Source: Escherichia coli
Lineage (GTDB): Bacteria > Pseudomonadota > Gammaproteobacteria > Enterobacterales > Enterobacteriaceae
Strand: one strand, 5' to 3'
Assembly: GCF_017348835.2 (NCBI RefSeq)
Contig: NZ_CP071375.1
Length of the DNA stretch: 64,000 nucleotides
This document shows positions 17,391-39,145 of the stretch, piece after piece; position 1 is the first letter of the stretch; the number at the start of each line of letters is the position of its first letter. Position numbers and translations under genes: made by a program. A model generated the notes under the pieces. The model ran no database searches and was not told the origin of the DNA. It worked only from the letters and a program-made list of their open reading frames with translations.

Positions 17391-18194
17391 TTAAACAAAG
17401 CGGCAGCTAATGGAGCCCATGTTGCCGTAATCGACGTGGAAGGTATCGCCCTTACGCGCCGGAACCGGGCGGGTGAACGAACCGCCGAGAATGATTTGCC
17501 CGGCTTCCAGTTGTACGTCATACGGTGCGAGTTTGTTCGCCAGCCAGGCCACGCCGTTTGCCGGATGATTTAGCACACCAGCGGCGACGCCAGTTTCTTC
17601 AATCACGCCATTGCGATACATCAGGGCGGAGATCCAACGCAGATCCAGTTCGTCTGGTTTGATCGGACGACCGCCGAGGATCACTCCGGCGTTGGCGGCG
17701 TTATCAGAAATGGTGTCGAACACTTTGCGCGGGCGCTGGGTTTCCGGATCGATGTTGTGGCAGCGGGCGTCGATCAGCTCCAGCGCCGGGATCACGTAGT
17801 CCGTGGCGTTGTAGACGTCGAACAGCGTGCAGTTTGGCCCACGCAGCGGTTTTGCCAGCACAAAAGCCAGCTCCACTTCAATGCGCGGCACGATAAAGCG
17901 ATCGGTCGGGATATCGCTGCCATCGTGGAAGAACATGTCGTCCAGCAATGCACCGTAATCTGGCTCGCTGATTTGTGAGCTGGCCTGCATCGCTTTCGAG
18001 GTCAGGCCGATTTTGTGGCCTTTCAGCGTGCGGCCTTCGGCGATTTTCAGTCGGACCCATTCGCGCTGTACGGCGTAGGCGTCTTCAATGGTGATCTCCG
18101 GGTAATCCAGCGAGATCGCGCGGATCTGTTCACGCTGTTTTTCTGCCTGATCCAGACGCTGGGCGATCAGGGTGTGGGTGTGTTTATCGAACAT
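17391..18194 (-). CDS. hpaH: 2-oxo-hept-4-ene-1,7-dioate hydratase
   Basis: Product from [43 protein letters not shown]...; the start may instead be the upstream ATG at 18212. Confidence 0.85.
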
Positions 18195-18261
18195 AGCGAT
18201 ATCCTGTGGCATTGCCGGATGCGGCTGCGCCTTATCATCCAGCCTGGAAGCTGGTGCAAAT

Positions 18262-18642
18262 TTATTTAAACAACGCGTGTACGTTGTTCTGTTTGAAATT
18301 CAACGTCGGGTGCAGCTCTGCAATCTCAAATGAAAGCGCCAGGTAACGGCTCTCCATCAGTGAGGCGAAGTGCGTTTTAATCAGATCAAACAGCATTTCG
18401 CCTACTTCCTGACGGCTTTCCAGACTGCGCCCGCTGCCGATTTTTAGCGTCATATGCACAAAGGCGTAATCGTGCTTGCCATCAGCCATTTGCCAGGTAT
18501 CGATCCAGTGTGCCCGGCTACGTATTCCCCCAAGCGGAAAAATCCCCGTCGCCGCCAGTGCGGTGTTAACACTGGCAAACAGCTCAGGTAAGCGGGCTTC
18601 TTGACGAATATTTTCAGTACATTCCACGATAAAGTGCGGCAT
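18262..18642 (-). CDS. hpaF: 5-carboxymethyl-2-hydroxymuconate isomerase
   Basis: 126 aa [46 protein letters not shown]... Confidence 0.9.
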
Positions 18643-18651
18643 AAAACGTCC

Positions 18652-19503
18652 TTACGCGGGCAGCGGGAAAACAGCGTTAACCTGACCGGTGCCAGAGCTT
18701 GGGAACAGCTCGGTAATAAACTCCACCTTGCCGTCGTATTTATCCCAGCCGAGCATCCCCAGCAGCATCACCGTGTCGTGCATATTGCCTTCGCCGTAGC
18801 AGTAGTCGGCGTACTCCGGCAGCATATTGCAGAACTCTTTGAACTGGCCTTCGCGCCACAACTTCACCACGCGCTCGTCCATCTGGCGGTCGAACTCGCG
18901 GGTGTAGCTGTTCATCCCTTCTTCTGCACGCTGATCGTCAATAAAGCGGTGCGATAACGAACCGCTGGCAAGGACCGCCACGGTGCCGTCGTACTGTTCG
19001 ATCGCTTTCAGAATCGCTTCGCCCAGCTTGCGGCTGTCGGCAAAATCGTGAACCGTGCAGAAAGCCGAAATGGAGACCACTTTGAAGTGCTTGTCTTCAT
19101 TCATGTAGCGCATCGGCACCAGCGTGCCGTATTCCAGTTTCAGGCTGGGAATGTTGTGCGCTTTTGCCCGCACGCCGAGCTTTAAGGCTTCAACGGCAAT
19201 AAGCTGCCCCAACTCCGGGTTGCCCTCGTAGTTGTAGGTCATGTCACGAATAAAATGCGGCAGCTCGTTGCTGGTGTAGACGCCTTCAAAATGGTCTGCA
19301 CAGTTGATGTGATAAGCACTGTTGACCAGCCAGTGAGTATCGAAAACAATAATGGTATCGACGCCCATTTCCCGGCAACGCTTGCTGATCTCTTTATGCC
19401 CGTCGATCGCGCCCTGGCGGCAACCGTGGTTTTTTCCTGGCAGTTCAGAGAGATACATCGACGGTACGTGCGTGATCTTGGCGGCTAACGCTAACTTACC
19501 CAT
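18652..19503 (-). CDS. hpaD: 3,4-dihydroxyphenylacetate 2,3-dioxygenase (extradiol)
   Basis: 283 aa MGKLALAAKITHVPSMYLSELPGKNHGCRQGAIDGHKEISKRCREMGVDT... Confidence 0.9.
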   Translation of the reverse strand: MGKLALAAKITHVPSMYLSELPGKNHGCRQGAIDGHKEISKRCREMGVDTIIVFDTHWLVNSAYHINCADHFEGVYTSNELPHFIRDMTYNYEGNPELGQLIAVEALKLGVRAKAHNIPSLKLEYGTLVPMRYMNEDKHFKVVSISAFCTVHDFADSRKLGEAILKAIEQYDGTVAVLASGSLSHRFIDDQRAEEGMNSYTREFDRQMDERVVKLWREGQFKEFCNMLPEYADYCYGEGNMHDTVMLLGMLGWDKYDGKVEFITELFPSSGTGQVNAVFPLPA

Positions 19504-19504
19504 A

Positions 19505-20971
19505 TCAGACTCCCCATTTCGGAATTGGATGGTCGCCCATGGAAATGCAGACGTTCTTCATTTCCGCGAACACTTCGAAGCTGTACTCACCGCCTTCACG
19601 CCCGGTGCCGGAGGCTTTTACGCCGCCAAATGGCTGGCGCAGGTCACGCACGTTCTGGGTGTTGACGAACACCATGCCAGCTTCAATGCCACGCGCCAGG
19701 CGTAACACTTTGCTGACATCCTGTGTCCAGATGTACGACGCGAGGCCGTACTCCACGTCGTTTGCCAGACGTAAGCCTTCGGCTTCGTCTTTAAACGGCA
19801 GCAGGCAGGCGACCGGCCCGAAAATCTCTTCCTGGGCGACTCGCATACGGTTATCAACGTCTGCCAGCACGGTTGGGCGCAGGAAGTTGCCGCCTTTCAG
19901 GTGCGCAGGCAGGTCGGACGGTTTATCCGGGCCGCCCGCCAGCAGGGTTGCGCCTTCTTCAATGCCGAGACGGATATAGCCGGAGACTTTTTCCCAGTGC
20001 TGCTGGCTGATAAGCGCCCCAACCTGGGTATTCGGATCGTTCGGATCGCCCACGCGCAGACGGTTGGCGCGTTCGGCAAAGCGTTTAACGAATTCCGGGT
20101 AGATGCTTTGCTGAATAAAGATGCGCGAACCGGCGGTGCAGCGCTCGCCGTTGATCGAGAAGATGGTGAACAGGGCGGCGTCCAGCGCGCGTTCAATATC
20201 GGCATCTTCAAAAATCAGCACCGGCGATTTACCGCCCAGTTCCATGGAGTATTTTTTCAGCCCGGCGTTTTTCATGATGTTGCGCCCGGTGGCCGTACCG
20301 CCGGTGAACGACACGGCACGTACGTCATGATGACGAACCAGCGCATCCCCTGCGGTTGCGCCGTAGCCCTGTACCACGTTCAGCACGCCTGCCGGAATAC
20401 CGGCTTCCAGCGCCAGCTCACCCAGGCGGTCAGCGGTCAGCGGGGAGAGTTCCGACATTTTCAGTACCGCGGTATTGCCCAGCGCCAGACACGGCGCGAC
20501 CTTCCATGTGGCGGTCATAAACGGTACGTTCCACGGCGATACCAGCGCACAAACGCCCACCGGCTGCACCAGCGTGTAGTTGAGCATCTTGTCGTCAACC
20601 GGATAGGTCTTGCCGTTCATCTGCTGGCAGACTTCCGCGAAAAATTCAAAGTTGTGGGAAGCGCGTGGGATCAACACATTTTTGGTCTGATGGATCGGCA
20701 GGCCGGTGTCCGCGGTTTCCATCGCGGCGATCTCTGGCACGTTCTGGTCGATCAGATCGCCCAGACGGCGCATCAGGCGCGCACGCTCTTTCATCGGCAG
20801 ATTGGCCCATTTCGGGAACGCCTCTTTCGCTGCCGCTACCGCCTGATTGATCTCCGCTTCACCGCCAGAGGCCACATCCGCCAGCACTTCACCCGTTGCC
20901 GGATTGGTGGTCTGGAAGTAGTCGTTACCTGCAACATTTTTGCCGTTGATCCAATGATTTACTTTTTTCAT
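19505..20971 (-). CDS. hpaE: 5-carboxymethyl-2-hydroxymuconate semialdehyde dehydrogenase
   Basis: 488 aa aldehyde dehydrogenase family; position within the hpa meta-cleavage operon. Confidence 0.9.
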   Translation of the reverse strand: MKKVNHWINGKNVAGNDYFQTTNPATGEVLADVASGGEAEINQAVAAAKEAFPKWANLPMKERARLMRRLGDLIDQNVPEIAAMETADTGLPIHQTKNVLIPRASHNFEFFAEVCQQMNGKTYPVDDKMLNYTLVQPVGVCALVSPWNVPFMTATWKVAPCLALGNTAVLKMSELSPLTADRLGELALEAGIPAGVLNVVQGYGATAGDALVRHHDVRAVSFTGGTATGRNIMKNAGLKKYSMELGGKSPVLIFEDADIERALDAALFTIFSINGERCTAGSRIFIQQSIYPEFVKRFAERANRLRVGDPNDPNTQVGALISQQHWEKVSGYIRLGIEEGATLLAGGPDKPSDLPAHLKGGNFLRPTVLADVDNRMRVAQEEIFGPVACLLPFKDEAEGLRLANDVEYGLASYIWTQDVSKVLRLARGIEAGMVFVNTQNVRDLRQPFGGVKASGTGREGGEYSFEVFAEMKNVCISMGDHPIPKWGV

Positions 20972-22257
20972 TTCGCTGTTTCCTCACTCACAATTCGGTT
21001 CACCAGGCAGCCCACGCCTTCTACTTCCACCACTACTTCATCGCCAGGCACCACGTCAGATAAGCCTTTTGGTGTGCCGGTGGCGATCATGTCGCCCGGA
21101 TTCAGGGTCATAAATTCGCTTAAGTAGGCGATCAGGAAGGGCACGCTGAAGATCAGATCGGCGGTGGTGCCTTGCTGGCGTAACTCGCCGTTGACGAAGG
21201 TGCGAAGGGTCAGATTATGCGGGTCCGGGATCGCCTCTTTCGGCACGATGGTTGAAAGCATCGGCGTCAGTCCGTCGCGGCTTTTTACCCGCAGGTTAGG
21301 GCGGTAGTAGTTTTCCAGATAGTCGCGAATGGCGTAGTCGTTACACACGGTGTAGCCCGCGACATAATCCATGGCATCGGCTTCGCTGACGTTACGCGCC
21401 TGTTTGCCAATAACTACCACCAGCTCCGCTTCATAGTGCATGTATTCAATATTGTTTGGACGCACGGAGGTCTGGTTATCGCCAGTGAGGGTATTTGGCG
21501 CTTTCAGGAACACCAGCGGTTCTTCCGGTGGCTTAAATTCCAGTTCGCTGGCGTGGTCGGCGTAGTTCAGGCCGAGGGCAAACAGCGTGCCGTGCGGGTG
21601 TGGCTGCGTTGGGAAGCTCTTGCGCGTGGTCACTTCACGTTCGTCCACTACCGGATTTTCCAGCGGCGGGAAACCTTCTGCGAGAACACGAACGCGATCG
21701 CCTGGCTGTATTTCCACGCGCGCCTGTGGCGTGCCGAGCAGAATGGCATCGCCTGGATTCAGTGTGGCAAATTCGCTCAGGGCGCTCAGCAACTGCGCGG
21801 CGTTACGTTGTAAATCGGCGGTATTCCAGTGATCGGCAGGACGCCCGTTGATCTCGGTATAGATGGTCAGATTATCGACATTGCTGAGAGCCACGGTTTC
21901 GCCAATGGGGCAGAATCCATCACGACATTTTGCTTTGATTGCCGGGCGGTAAAAGCTCTCTTCCGGCAGGCTGACGTCGTTAGCCAGCGCATATCCGGCG
22001 ATGTACTCTGCCGCATCTTCTTCACGTACTTTCGTCGCCGTTTTTCCCACAATCAGCGCAACAGTCGCACCGCTCAGTACCTTTTCACCCTGTGGAAAGG
22101 GAATCGGTTCACCGCAACCAATCACCGTATTGCGCGGTTTAATAAACCAGACCGCAGTTTTAGGCGGGGCTTTGTAGGGGGATTGCTGGAACGCGTCCTG
22201 CCATGCATCAAGCTGGCTGCGATGGTTCAACGCTACGGCGAAGATAGTGCCTTTCAT
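20968..22257 (-). CDS. hpaG: bifunctional 5-oxopent-3-ene-1,2,5-tricarboxylate decarboxylase / 2-hydroxyhepta-2,4-diene-1,7-dioate isomerase
   Basis: 429 aa from MKGTIFAVALNH...; tandem FAH-type domains; overlaps hpaE by 4 nt. Confidence 0.88.
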   Translation of the reverse strand: MKGTIFAVALNHRSQLDAWQDAFQQSPYKAPPKTAVWFIKPRNTVIGCGEPIPFPQGEKVLSGATVALIVGKTATKVREEDAAEYIAGYALANDVSLPEESFYRPAIKAKCRDGFCPIGETVALSNVDNLTIYTEINGRPADHWNTADLQRNAAQLLSALSEFATLNPGDAILLGTPQARVEIQPGDRVRVLAEGFPPLENPVVDEREVTTRKSFPTQPHPHGTLFALGLNYADHASELEFKPPEEPLVFLKAPNTLTGDNQTSVRPNNIEYMHYEAELVVVIGKQARNVSEADAMDYVAGYTVCNDYAIRDYLENYYRPNLRVKSRDGLTPMLSTIVPKEAIPDPHNLTLRTFVNGELRQQGTTADLIFSVPFLIAYLSEFMTLNPGDMIATGTPKGLSDVVPGDEVVVEVEGVGCLVNRIVSEETAK

Positions 22258-22282
22258 TACCACTCCTCGGATTCGATCATCT

Positions 22283-22306
22283 TAATCATTAATATGTTAA
22301 TGATTA
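22283..22306. promoter_or_regulatory. near-palindromic operator-like site TAATCATTA-N6-TAATGATTA in the divergent hpaG/hpaR promoter region; likely HpaR operator
   Basis: 9-bp inverted arms seen in sequence between the divergent hpaG and hpaR starts. Confidence 0.5.
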
Positions 22307-22527
22307 CTTTTATTCCCGATTGCGTAGTTTGGCAAAAGTAAGTGATGTAAATGTGATCTAATTAACAAACTATTTACATTTAAAGATAATAAAACATTAA
22401 ATATCAGTAAGTTAATAAAATATCATCAATTTTGATAAAATCAGGAATTGAGGGACAGCGCAGTCCCGGTAACGTGACGATTAACTGTTTCTATATTAAT
22501 GATTTTGAATTTTTCAGGGGAAAGATA

Positions 22528-22974
22528 ATGCACGACTCACTAACCATTGCGTTGCTCCAGGCGCGAGAAGCGGCGATGAGTTATTTTCGCCCAATCGTTA
22601 AACGGCATAATTTGACTGAACAACAGTGGCGCATCGTGCGTATTCTGGCGGAAAGCCCATCAATGGATTTTCACGATCTGGCGTATCGCGCCTGCATTTT
22701 GCGCCCAAGCCTGACCGGGATCCTTACGCGGATGGAACGCGACGGTTTAGTGTTGCGATTAAAGCCAATCAATGATCAGCGGAAGCTCTATATCTCGCTA
22801 ACCAAAGAGGGGCAGGCGCTGTATAACCGCGCCCAGACACAGATTGAAGAAGCCTATCGGCAGATTGAAGCTCAGTTTACTGCCGAGAAAATGCAACAGT
22901 TAACCCATCTGTTAGAGGAATTTATTGCTCTGGGCAATTCCCGACAAGAAGACATCCCGGGCGATAATGAATAA
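22528..22974 (+). CDS. hpaR: MarR-family repressor of the hpa meta operon
   Basis: 148 aa from MHDSLTIALLQAREAAMSYFRPIVKRHNLTEQQWRIVRILAESP...; winged-helix MarR fold. Confidence 0.85.
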   Translation: MHDSLTIALLQAREAAMSYFRPIVKRHNLTEQQWRIVRILAESPSMDFHDLAYRACILRPSLTGILTRMERDGLVLRLKPINDQRKLYISLTKEGQALYNRAQTQIEEAYRQIEAQFTAEKMQQLTHLLEEFIALGNSRQEDIPGDNE

Positions 22975-23035
22975 CTTTTTAGTATCTGATAACCAGCGCC
23001 TGGTTTTTCCATGGATGGCGGGTTACACCTTTTCA

Positions 23036-23062
23036 TAAAGTTTTTGCTTTCCAGGTCGAAAA
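23036..23062 (+). promoter_or_regulatory. putative sigma-28 (FliA) promoter of tsr
   Basis: TAAAGTTT-N11-GTCGAAAA versus consensus TAAAGTTT-N11-GCCGATAA, about 30 nt upstream of the tsr ATG. Confidence 0.5.
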
Positions 23063-23092
23063 TCTTGCATCGGTCCACAGGAAAGAGAAACC

Positions 23093-24757
23093 ATGTTAAA
23101 ACGTATCAAGATCGTGACCAGCTTACTGCTGGTTTTGGCCGTTTTTGGCCTTTTACAACTGACATCAGGCGGTCTGTTCTTTAATGCCTTAAAGAATGAC
23201 AAAGAAAATTTCACTGTTTTACAAACCATTCGTCAGCAGCAATCCACGCTGAATGGCAGCTGGGTCGCGTTGTTGCAGACGCGTAACACCCTCAACCGCG
23301 CGGGTATCCGCTACATGATGGATCAGAATAATATTGGTAGCGGTTCAACCGTTGCTGAGCTGATGCAGAGTGCCAGTATTTCGCTGAAACAGGCGGAAAA
23401 AAACTGGGCAGATTACGAAGCGTTGCCGCGTGACCCGCGTCAGAGCACCGCCGCAGCGGCAGAGATCAAACGTAATTACGATATTTATCACAATGCGCTG
23501 GCGGAGCTGATCCAACTGTTAGGTGCAGGCAAAATCAACGAGTTCTTTGATCAGCCGACCCAGGGATATCAGGACGGTTTCGAGAAGCAGTATGTGGCTT
23601 ACATAGAGCAAAACGATCGGCTCTATGATATCGCCGTCAGCGATAACAATGCCTCCTACAGCCAGGCGATGTGGATTCTGTTGGGCGTGATGATCGTCGT
23701 ACTGGCGGTCATCTTCGCCGTCTGGTTCGGTATTAAAGCCTCGTTGGTAGCGCCAATGAATCGCCTGATTGACAGCATTCGTCATATTGCAGGCGGCGAT
23801 CTGGTGAAACCGATTGAGGTGGATGGCTCTAATGAGATGGGGCAACTGGCAGAGAGTTTGCGCCATATGCAGGGAGAGCTGATGCGTACCGTCGGTGATG
23901 TGCGCAACGGGGCCAATGCCATCTATAGCGGTGCCAGCGAAATCGCCACCGGCAATAACGATCTCTCTTCGCGCACCGAGCAACAGGCCGCTTCGCTGGA
24001 AGAGACGGCAGCCAGCATGGAGCAACTGACCGCAACGGTGAAACAGAACGCCGAGAATGCGCGCCAGGCCAGCCACCTGGCGTTAAGTGCTTCTGAAACG
24101 GCGCAACGCGGCGGCAAAGTGGTAGATAACGTGGTGCAGACTATGCGTGATATCTCCACCAGTTCGCAGAAAATCGCCGATATTATCAGCGTAATTGACG
24201 GCATTGCCTTCCAGACCAATATTCTGGCTTTGAACGCGGCGGTTGAAGCAGCGCGTGCGGGTGAGCAAGGACGTGGTTTTGCGGTGGTTGCGGGAGAAGT
24301 GCGTAATCTGGCCCAGCGTAGCGCCCAGGCGGCTCGTGAAATTAAAAGCCTGATTGAAGACTCGGTGGGGAAAGTGGATGTTGGCTCTACGCTGGTCGAA
24401 AGCGCCGGGGAAACAATGGCGGAGATTGTCAGTGCCGTGACCCGCGTGACGGACATTATGGGCGAAATAGCTTCTGCTTCTGATGAGCAGAGCCGTGGTA
24501 TCGATCAGGTTGGCTTAGCGGTTGCTGAGATGGACCGGGTAACTCAACAGAACGCCGCGCTGGTGGAAGAATCTGCCGCTGCCGCCGCCGCGCTGGAAGA
24601 GCAGGCCAGTCGCCTGACCGAAGCTGTGGCAGTGTTCCGGATTCAGCAACAGCAGCAACAGCAGCGTGAAACATCGGCTGTGGTAAAAACCGTGACGCCA
24701 GCTACGCCGCGTAAAATGGCAGTGGCAGATAGCGGGGAGAACTGGGAAACGTTTTAA
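23093..24757 (+). CDS. tsr: methyl-accepting chemotaxis protein I (serine chemoreceptor), ends NWETF
   Basis: 554 aa; full-length match to Tsr; C-terminal glutamine run is 7 residues. Confidence 0.92.
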
Positions 24758-37524: not shown

Positions 37525-37611
37525 TGGTGCGAGGGGGGGGACTTGAACCCCCACGTCCGTAAGGACACTAACACCTGAAGCTAGCGCGTCTACCAATTCC
37601 GCCACCTTCGC
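37525..37611 (-). tRNA. leuV: tRNA-Leu (anticodon CAG)
   Basis: Reverse complement reads GCGAAGGTGGCGGAATTGGTAGACGCGCTAGCTTCAGGTGTTAGTGTCCTTACGGACGTGGGGGTTCAAGTCCCCCCCCTCGCACCA, 87 nt. Confidence 0.95.
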
Positions 37612-37644
37612 ACAGTCATCTTACTTTTTTGATATCGCCTCGTT

Positions 37645-37731
37645 TGGTGCGAGGGGGGGGACTTGAACCCCCACGTCCGTAAGAACACTAACACCTGAAG
37701 CTAGCGCGTCTACCAATTCCGCCACCTTCGC
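37645..37731 (-). tRNA. leuP: tRNA-Leu (anticodon CAG), one-base variant in the variable arm
   Basis: Identical to the flanking copies except window position 37684 (C to U in tRNA sense, retaining a U-G wobble pair). Confidence 0.93.
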
Positions 37732-37759
37732 CCAGTGCGAGCAATATCAACGTGGTTTT

Positions 37760-37846
37760 TGGTGCGAGGGGGGGGACTTGAACCCCCACGTCCGTAAGGA
37801 CACTAACACCTGAAGCTAGCGCGTCTACCAATTCCGCCACCTTCGC
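37760..37846 (-). tRNA. leuQ: tRNA-Leu (anticodon CAG)
   Basis: Same 87-nt sequence as the copy at 37525..37611. Confidence 0.95.
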
Positions 37847-37984
37847 ATACCATCAATTCTTAAAAAGAATTGCTACCACGGAGGCGCATTCTAGTGGTTT
37901 TCAGCTTTTCGTCAATAGTTAATTATCGCCGGAGGTGTAATTGCTGGAAAAATGTCCATCAGGAAACTAGCGTGCAGGTTTGGT

Positions 37985-38095
<111 letters not shown>

Positions 38096-38113
38096 CGGTA
38101 TTCGGCGAGATAA

Positions 38114-39145
38114 TTAACCTTTCTTCGCCTGGCGGGTCATAATGGCGCGATACACCTTGAAGCGCCCTGTTTGCGCGATCACTTCGTGGAAGCCAAATGT
38201 CTCATCCAGCACGTCCGGATAAGGCAGGAAGGCGTTCGCTACAATTCGCAGCTCGCCGCCGCTATTAAGATGACGCACCGCGCCGCGAATCAGCGTTTGC
38301 GCCGCATCCAGGCTGGTTTGCATCCCATCGTGGAACGGCGGGTTGGAGATGATCATATCAAAACGACCTTTCACCTCGGAAAAGACGTTGCTGGCAAAGA
38401 CTTCACCTTCAACGCCGTTGGCGGCAAGTGTTGCGCGGCTGGCTTCTACCGCCGGGGCAGAGACATCGCACAAGGTGAGACGAATTTTCGGCGAATGGCG
38501 CGCAAAGGCAACTGAAAGCACACCCGCGCCACAGCCGACATCCAGCACTTTACCTTTCGTGTGCGGAGTTAACGTTGAGAGCAGCAACTGGCTACCGACA
38601 TCCAGACCGTCGCGGCTAAACACGCCAGGCAGCGTTTTGACCGTCAGGCCATCGACGCTGTATTCGCCCCAGAATTTATCCGCATCAAATACTGGCTGTT
38701 TTTCCAGACGACCAAAATAGAGTCCACAGCGACGGGCGCTGTCGACTTTATTCAACGGCGCATAATCTGCCAGCATCTGCTCGGCGCTGCGCACGCCGCT
38801 GCGGTTCTCGCCAACGACAAAAATATCTGTCCCCACTGGCAGCAGAGAAAGTAAATTCATCAACTGGAACTGGGCTTCCGGTTTGTTCTTCGGCCAGTAG
38901 TAAATCAGCGTATCGCAATCTGCGACGTCATCCGCCGTGGCGACCAGACTGAAACGGGCGTTATCCCCCATCTGGCGGCTTAATACCTGCCAGTGGTGGA
39001 ATTGCTGGGTATGAGCACGGCTGGCCGCGGTATCTAAACGCGCGGGCAGGTCATCCTGTAAGTCTCCGGCAAACAGAATACGGCTTTGTTCGAAATCATC
39101 ACTGTGACGCAGCAAGACTTCACTTGCCGGGGTAAATGCAGACAT
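38114..39145 (-). CDS. rsmC: 16S rRNA (guanine1207-N2)-methyltransferase
   Basis: 343 aa with SAM-binding motif [11 protein letters not shown]. Confidence 0.92.

Follow-up and report, generated by a model that had tools for sequence, protein, structure and literature searches.

Three tandem tRNA-Leu(CAG) genes lie within the stretch of Escherichia coli DNA analysed here (64,000 nucleotides, hereafter the window), and the middle gene differs from the other two by a single base, at position 37684. A preliminary description of the sequence left two explanations for this base, a polymorphism among otherwise identical multi-copy tRNA genes or a base-call error. The locus thus raises the question of whether the middle copy is damaged, newly mutated, or simply as it should be, and of what the base does to the tRNA that carries it. 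We conclude that position 37684 very probably holds the normal, inherited sequence of leuP, a second tRNA-Leu1 isodecoder that is likely used like the C form and is lost occasionally by collapse or homogenization of the array.

Results

A single variable-arm difference in the leuQ-leuP-leuV operon

Exactly three tRNA genes are found by ARAGORN in the 64-kb window, each a tRNA-Leu(CAG) on the minus strand (Table 1), and the Rfam tRNA model (RF00005) gives leuQ, leuP and leuV the same score of 48.5 bits (gathering score 29; E=1e-08). Together they form an operon, 37846..37525 on the minus strand, transcribed from leuQ to leuV towards yjjZ. The leucine tRNA triplet sits between yjjZ/fhuF and rsmC/holD in the annotations of MG1655 and strain PE164, and open reading frames of the window match fhuF, yjjZ, rsmC and holD. 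The matching region of MG1655 is annotated as leuV (b4368), leuP (b4369) and leuQ (b4370), and the array of the window is the E. coli leuQ-leuP-leuV operon, the orthologue of K-12 b4370-b4369-b4368. A 421-nt query spanning the array has a match in 5425 of 5426 complete E. coli genomes, annotated as tRNA-Leu (three times) and yjjZ, and is 100% identical to the region in strain PE164.

Direct comparison of the three 87-nt genes leaves one differing column, tRNA nucleotide 48, which reads C/T/C at window positions 37564/37684/37799; on the plus strand an A at 37684 stands against G at 37564 and 37799. Nucleotide 48 belongs to the third pair of the four-pair stem of the variable arm (G46-C57, U47-A56, C48-G55 and C49-G54, closing the loop UUAC), within a variable region of 15 nt. 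The difference is therefore a C to U change in the tRNA sense, by which C48-G55 becomes a U48-G55 wobble, and the preliminary description was right on both counts, namely that the three genes are alike except at 37684 and that a C-G pair of the variable-arm stem is turned into U-G. The anticodon CAG occupies linear positions 35–37 in all three genes, which with their long, paired variable arm have the features of a bacterial class II tRNA-Leu. The E. coli leucine identity elements, read from the sequence against the list in PMC9976931, are all present (the A before CCA at linear position 84, which is discriminator A73; A15 with U at linear position 59, standard 48, as the A15-U48 Levitt pair; and G18 G19), and none of them differs between leuP and leuQ or leuV.

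Table 1. Window coordinates of the tRNA-Leu(CAG) array, its variant base and the adjoining leader elements
Feature	Position	Strand	Description	Basis
Variant base	37684	(-)	A on the plus strand, U48 of the leuP tRNA; C in leuQ and leuV	
leuP variable-arm hairpin	37675..37686	(-)	tRNA nt 46–57, GUUC-UUAC-GGAC; U48 pairs with G55 (window 37677)	Cloverleaf built from sequence
leuQ	37760..37846	(-)	Promoter-proximal tRNA-Leu(CAG) gene, C at tRNA nt 48	ARAGORN, Rfam, MG1655 gene order
leuP	37645..37731	(-)	Middle tRNA-Leu(CAG) gene, U (T) at nt 48; corresponds to K-12 leuP b4369	ARAGORN, Rfam, MG1655 comparison
leuV	37525..37611	(-)	Last tRNA-Leu(CAG) gene of the operon, C at nt 48	ARAGORN, Rfam, MG1655 order
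leuQ-leuP spacer	37732..37759	(-)	28 nt; strongly conserved among genera	
leuP-leuV spacer	37612..37644	(-)	33 nt	
Sigma-70 promoter-like site	37888..37915	(-)	TTGACG, 16 nt, TAGAAT, then G+C-rich GCGCCTCC	10/12 consensus match
Leader inverted repeat	37854..37872	(-)	CAAUUCUU-UUU-AAGAAUUG in RNA sense	Read from sequence

Distribution of the U allele within E. coli

The leuP gene of MG1655 carries the same T at nucleotide 48 and is identical to that of the window over 87 of 87 nt, with C at this position in its leuQ and leuV. A 57-nt query centred on the variant is matched exactly by 4786 of the 5429 matching E. coli records (~88%), and the remaining 643, which reach only 98.2% with this U-allele 57-mer, have no U-type copy. 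The leuT gene of E. coli itself carries C48. Comparison with leuP in other strains had been suggested in the preliminary description as a check on the base; it shows that the base is not specific to this strain. For a single base, what counts is reproducibility rather than chance, and this one recurs in thousands of independent assemblies.

Arrays without the U allele take several forms. In O157:H7 F8952 and in strain AVS0756 a single C copy remains between yjjZ and rsmC; IAL7255 has three copies in the order C-C-C; CFSAN004176, whose assembly contains homopolymer errors, has two genes, both C; and in 2020S05-013 the annotation, taken by itself, places one Leu gene at the array locus. These examples show derived states, either collapse to one or two copies or C-C-C. 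Of 5426 E. coli genomes, 4984 contain the leuP-leuV spacer and 4964 the leuQ-leuP spacer according to spacer-centred queries, and a single-copy junction query gives at least 80% coverage in 509 genomes, a class that mixes one- and two-copy arrays. Simple arithmetic on the counts gives roughly 4900 genomes with three copies, about 116 with two and about 393 with one. These figures stand for genomes and not for independent events, are dominated by the O157:H7 clone, and include at least one two-copy array whose assembly has homopolymer errors. The one-copy genomes appear to be mostly of O157:H7 type (four of five among the 60 matches listed) and probably represent one clone. Copy number of the leuQPV array is unstable in nature, varying from three genes to one.

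The O157:H7 strain TW14359 (NC_013008.1, 4833669-4836725) has a tandem duplication of leuT-proM at the argX operon, giving the order Arg-His-Leu-Pro-Leu-Pro, with C in both Leu copies. With the array collapsed to one gene and leuT-proM duplicated, O157:H7 has a total of three tRNA-Leu(CAG) genes rather than two, and the duplication may be a dosage compensation for the collapsed array. A copy matching tRNA-Leu(CAG) is also present on a 294-kb E. coli plasmid (NZ_CP170379.1), and six to nine plasmid places matched the tRNA queries overall. We note that the run of eight Cs spanning the T stem and acceptor stem (tRNA nt 72–79) varies in length between 6 and 12 Cs among several assemblies, draft or long-read; the variation is almost certainly an artefact of assembling a homopolymer, and can give the tRNA a damaged appearance.

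Distribution of the U allele beyond E. coli

The cross-species sample was obtained by an exact scan for the T-carrying 27-mer, with one genome per species, and was therefore chosen on the U allele; alleles at these loci were called from genes extracted with ARAGORN. At least 120 stretches in this sample carry the U allele; the genera represented include Escherichia, Salmonella, Citrobacter, Klebsiella, Raoultella, Kosakonia, Enterobacter, Pantoea, Morganella, Proteus, Xenorhabdus and Photorhabdus. Most Enterobacteriaceae arrays among the matches listed read C-T-C in transcription order, namely those of Escherichia (coli, albertii and sp.), Salmonella arizonae, Citrobacter (10 loci), the Klebsiella oxytoca group and K. 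indica (5), Raoultella (4), Kosakonia (3), Pseudocitrobacter (3), Phytobacter, Intestinirhabdus, Pseudenterobacter, Superficieibacter and Entomohabitans. The same matches include C-C-T arrays, in Lelliottia, Huaxiibacter, Pluralibacter, Trabulsiella and some Enterobacter-like genomes, and two-gene arrays, in which the T copy comes first in Xenorhabdus and Photorhabdus (T-C) and second in Proteus and Morganella (C-T). Orthology of the arrays follows from their neighbours, since rsmC and holD adjoin them at RsmC identities from 99% down to about 55% (tblastn).

Allele-blind loci were obtained by anchoring on RsmC proteins, a homologue search that gave mostly Salmonella clusters and covered five additional taxa. 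At these loci the order is C-T-C in S. enterica and S. bongori and C'-T-C in an FGI57-like lineage. Each of the three also includes one reduced locus, with a lone C copy on a contig of S. enterica and in a genome of S. bongori, and a single-copy contig in the FGI57-like lineage. The array of K. pneumoniae is C-C-C, and Kluyvera has two copies with a different wobble, 57C>T, which gives G46-U57. The pattern CAGGTGTTAGTGTYCTTACGGACGTGG would serve for an allele-blind scan of Enterobacterales tRNA-Leu(CAG) genes. Over the matches listed and the RsmC-anchored loci together, the U lies in the middle gene of 33 of the 41 U-containing three-gene arrays, and several arrays hold three different copies.

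At the argX-hisR-leuT-proM operon, leuT carries T in at least 15 genus-level groups, which among the matches listed include Citrobacter, Enterobacter, Klebsiella (with K. pneumoniae), Raoultella, Morganella, Xenorhabdus, Pantoea, Yokenella, E. whittamii and others. Both forms of nucleotide 48 thus coexist in the Enterobacteriaceae, in the Morganellaceae and in at least one Pantoea. All copies are 5A/79C in the Enterobacteriaceae as against 5G/79T in the Morganellaceae, and C and U at nucleotide 48 are kept in both families. Because orthologous arrays and leuT genes of other genera share it, the C/U dimorphism looks older than E. coli by a wide margin, and much of the Enterobacteriaceae seems to have inherited the U of its middle gene from a common ancestor.

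Three observations on the same loci concern other positions. In the type strain of E. albertii (NBRC 107761), leuP has a second change besides U48, 24C>T, which places G12-U24 in the D stem. The fifth acceptor-stem pair (nt 5/79; window 37727 and 37653 in leuP) is A-C in all three E. coli genes; across the Enterobacterales the non-Watson-Crick combinations A-C, C-C or G-U prevail, A-U occurring in only two of 22 distinct sequences, and this mostly non-canonical position is common to the gene copies of each lineage. In Salmonella, K. pneumoniae, a Kluyvera sp. and the FGI57-like lineage, the yjjZ homologue is separated from fhuF by a GGDEF-domain gene, which is absent from this place in E. coli.

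Rejected alternatives: an error or a recent mutation

These distributions bear directly on the two explanations that treat the base as an accident of this sequence. That 37684 is a base-call or assembly error was conceivable a priori, and nothing further speaks for it, as the errors seen in draft and long-read versions of these genes are length errors of the C8 run and not substitutions at nucleotide 48; MG1655 has this base, as do 4786 of 5429 E. coli records and the orthologues of leuP in many genera, and the probability of an error is practically nil. A recent mutation confined to this strain or lineage would fit the fact that the site varies within the species, about 12% of E. coli genomes having no U allele. 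However, U is the majority state, occupies the same position of the array in E. albertii, Salmonella, Citrobacter, Klebsiella and others, and, contrary to what such a mutation would require, is not restricted to a single clade of the species, the genomes without it having derived arrays (one or two copies, or C-C-C). We regard a recent mutation as extremely improbable. The choice offered by the preliminary description, polymorphism or base-call error, was for the most part mistaken: the error is contradicted by MG1655 and by the E. coli records, and what was taken for a polymorphism among strains is a fixed difference between paralogues, so that polymorphism is an apt word only for the loss of the U allele in ~12% of E. 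coli genomes. The preferred explanation, an inherited leuP sequence, would instead account for the C-U-C order beside rsmC in many Enterobacteriaceae, the U-form leuT genes, and the C/U pairs at the orthologous locus of the Morganellaceae.

Structure and probable function of the U48 tRNA

In 22 distinct 87-nt tRNA-Leu(CAG) sequences from the cross-species loci, the variable-arm stem is 100% paired although all four pairs vary, three of them through G-U (nucleotide 48, 49C>T and 57C>T) and one by a compensatory change (47-56, from U-A to C-G). Pairing, which U48 satisfies, is what the variable stem conserves, and the earlier expectation that the fold is kept is borne out by this comparison. The wobble has a cost, however, in the nearest-neighbour model of ViennaRNA: the hairpin is calculated at –5.2 kcal/mol with C and –2.3 kcal/mol with U, so that the U form is ~2.9 kcal/mol weaker, which is not negligible, and the cloverleaf at –30.0 and –27.1 kcal/mol, respectively. 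Unconstrained minimum-free-energy folds of the isolated tRNAs were non-cloverleaf and differed between the alleles; such folds are uninformative for a tRNA and were set aside in favour of the cloverleaf and hairpin evaluations.

Leucine identity in E. coli does not reside in the long variable arm, where structural variation is tolerated; for E. coli LeuRS, A73 and tertiary contacts of the D and T loops matter, and tRNAs with randomized or deleted variable arms are still substrates (reviewed in PMC9976931). An amber (CUA) suppressor derived from leuP is an abundant tRNA with moderately active read-through, in a 2026 study that also describes several isodecoders for Leu (PMC13276491). In the literature searched we found no study of a functional difference between the leuP tRNA and those of leuQ, leuV and leuT. 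Since LeuRS is independent of the variable arm, the stem still pairs, and the leuP-derived suppressor works, the effect of U48 is expected to be small, and the U48 tRNA is most likely functional, with at most a small quantitative difference from C48. A tRNA pseudogene or decaying duplicate was considered and rejected, given a single change that keeps the pair, an Rfam score equal to that of the other copies, and conservation base for base across genera.

In the proposed scheme, leuP encodes a second tRNA-Leu1 isodecoder, with a U48-G55 wobble, beside the C48-G55 isodecoder of E. coli leuQ, leuV and leuT. The U-form tRNA would most likely be transcribed, processed, charged and used in the same way as the C form, and the main physical consequence of U48 would be a somewhat weaker variable-arm hairpin. 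In E. coli the U allele would be lost occasionally, either when recombination between the repeats shrinks the array from three copies to one or two, or when the array is homogenized to C-C-C.

Control regions of the operon and neighbouring elements

The –10 hexamer of the putative promoter and the bases downstream of it are invariant across 27 enterobacterial arrays. Between promoter and leuQ lies an inverted repeat of 8 bp, 7 nt upstream of the mature leuQ 5′ end, whose two arms covary in other genera (Klebsiella and Citrobacter, for instance, have CGATAC...GTATCG), which suggests a conserved hairpin. No intrinsic terminator is present 3′ of leuV in the window sequence, in agreement with a report that leuV is followed by an unstructured, Rho-dependent terminator (PMC2190699).

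Over the same 27 arrays, mean pairwise identity is 0.86 in the leader, 0.89 in the leuQ-leuP spacer (17 of 30 alignment columns invariant) and 0.79 in the leuP-leuV spacer, as against 0.46 with no invariant column in the 40 nt after leuV. The inter-tRNA spacers are nearly as conserved across Enterobacteriaceae genera as the tRNAs themselves, and the contrast with the sequence after leuV points to constraint on the spacers, which presumably serves precursor processing.

Repeats of the REP/BIME type lie at 37972-38130, between the leuQ promoter and rsmC, with sub-threshold matches to naRNA4 (RF02564), and at 45805-46085, where three tandem naRNA4 (RF02564) copies score above the gathering score. 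By homology, a cluster for 4-hydroxyphenylacetate degradation (hpa) adjoins tsr at about 17500-23300 of the window; the hpa cluster is not known from K-12, so the window belongs to a non-K-12 E. coli.

Selection or neutrality

Whether the two forms persist by selection or by simple inheritance is a separate question. The T in leuP and the C in leuQ and leuV are unchanged in most genera, a slower change than expected of a site free to alternate between C and U; constraint on nucleotide 48 is hinted at because the U has stayed in the middle gene while the trailer after leuV has diverged highly. That weak selection keeps U48-G55 across the Enterobacterales, through stabilization of the array or through a benefit of having both isodecoders, nevertheless appears rather unlikely.

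The first of these two routes would be second-order selection on the array, in which a heterologous middle copy makes adjacent 87-bp repeats non-identical, so that deletion between repeats becomes rarer and the most used leucine tRNA keeps its dosage of three genes. The prevalence of U in the middle gene (33/41 of the U-containing three-gene arrays listed) and the arrays with three different copies fit this proposal, as do the independent collapses straight to one C copy in E. coli (at least twice), S. enterica, S. bongori and the FGI57-like lineage, an outcome expected of recombination between the identical outer genes. The duplicated leuT-proM of O157:H7, whose array is collapsed, can be read in the same way. 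Divergence between tandem repeats is reported to lower their deletion in E. coli in a manner dependent on mismatch repair (Lovett and Feschenko, 1996). On the other hand, two-copy arrays are not rare (about 116 against about 393 one-copy E. coli genomes, the latter mostly of O157:H7 type), K. pneumoniae keeps C-C-C, and other tandem tRNA arrays of E. coli (glyVXY, argVYZQ and metZWV) persist with identical copies, so that we consider stabilization quite improbable. The other route, a U48 tRNA that is functionally distinct and needed beside C48 (set apart, perhaps, by its stability or turnover, by its modification, or by how it responds to a nuclease or toxin), draws on the coexistence of both forms across families in which nt 5/79 changed in all copies per lineage, on the weaker U hairpin (2.9 kcal/mol), and on the frequent presence of U in leuT where the array has none, as in K. 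pneumoniae, a pattern that is partly forced by a sample chosen on U. It is very improbable in view of the success of O157:H7 and of ~12% of E. coli genomes without any U copy, of a LeuRS that does not use the variable arm, and of the other stem pairs, which vary and yet stay paired (49C>T, 57C>T and 47-56) as ordinary tolerated variation does.

Discussion

The one-base difference of leuP is already documented, in that a tRNA-seq reference set lists (leuP) apart from (leuQ leuT leuV) (bioRxiv 10.1101/2020.02.21.958157). An older paper calls the four Leu1 genes identical (PMC2190699), a statement that is wrong by one base, nucleotide 48 of leuP. The mildly new element would be only the position-specific conservation of the leuP variant well beyond E. 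coli, as seen in the arrays compared here.

As the reference state of leuP, and neither a lesion nor a new allele, position 37684 needs no resequencing. Pipelines for tRNA-seq and variant calling should treat leuP as a separate isodecoder and leave its base at nucleotide 48 unflagged. Changes in leuQPV copy number, together with the leuT-proM duplication of O157:H7, affect the assumptions on tRNA gene dosage that enter codon-usage models. That a wobble variant is conserved so deeply, and at a specific place in the array, is a modest curiosity of evolution, and offers a way to ask whether a single heterology can protect a tandem tRNA array.

In this last respect the leu array may be likened to the repeats of Lovett and Feschenko (1996), reportedly direct E. 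coli repeats of ~100 bp with a single-position difference that are deleted by misalignment or recombination, a kind of loss also seen in the collapsed arrays; the analogy is between adjacent repeats of an engineered reporter and natural genes separated by spacers of 28–33 nt. Within E. coli, valV/valW, tyrT-tyrV/tyrU and metZWV/metY are likewise pairs of isodecoders with the same anticodon, one or a few bases apart, and differ at positions other than the leuP nucleotide 48. They are listed as separate species in tRNA-seq references (bioRxiv 10.1101/2020.02.21.958157), and valV and valW are described in the literature as nearly identical. Another close counterpart is leuT of Klebsiella, Enterobacter, Citrobacter, Raoultella, Morganella, Xenorhabdus and others, which is the same U48 isodecoder; in the Enterobacteriaceae the U-form leuT equals leuP over all 87 nt, but belongs to another operon (argX-hisR-leuT-proM) and another locus. 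A further one is leuP of MG1655, which shares with the window the whole gene, the place between leuQ and leuV, and the neighbours yjjZ/fhuF and rsmC/holD, the two regions differing only outside the genes, by one T fewer in the leuP-leuV spacer and a few single-nucleotide differences in the flanks.
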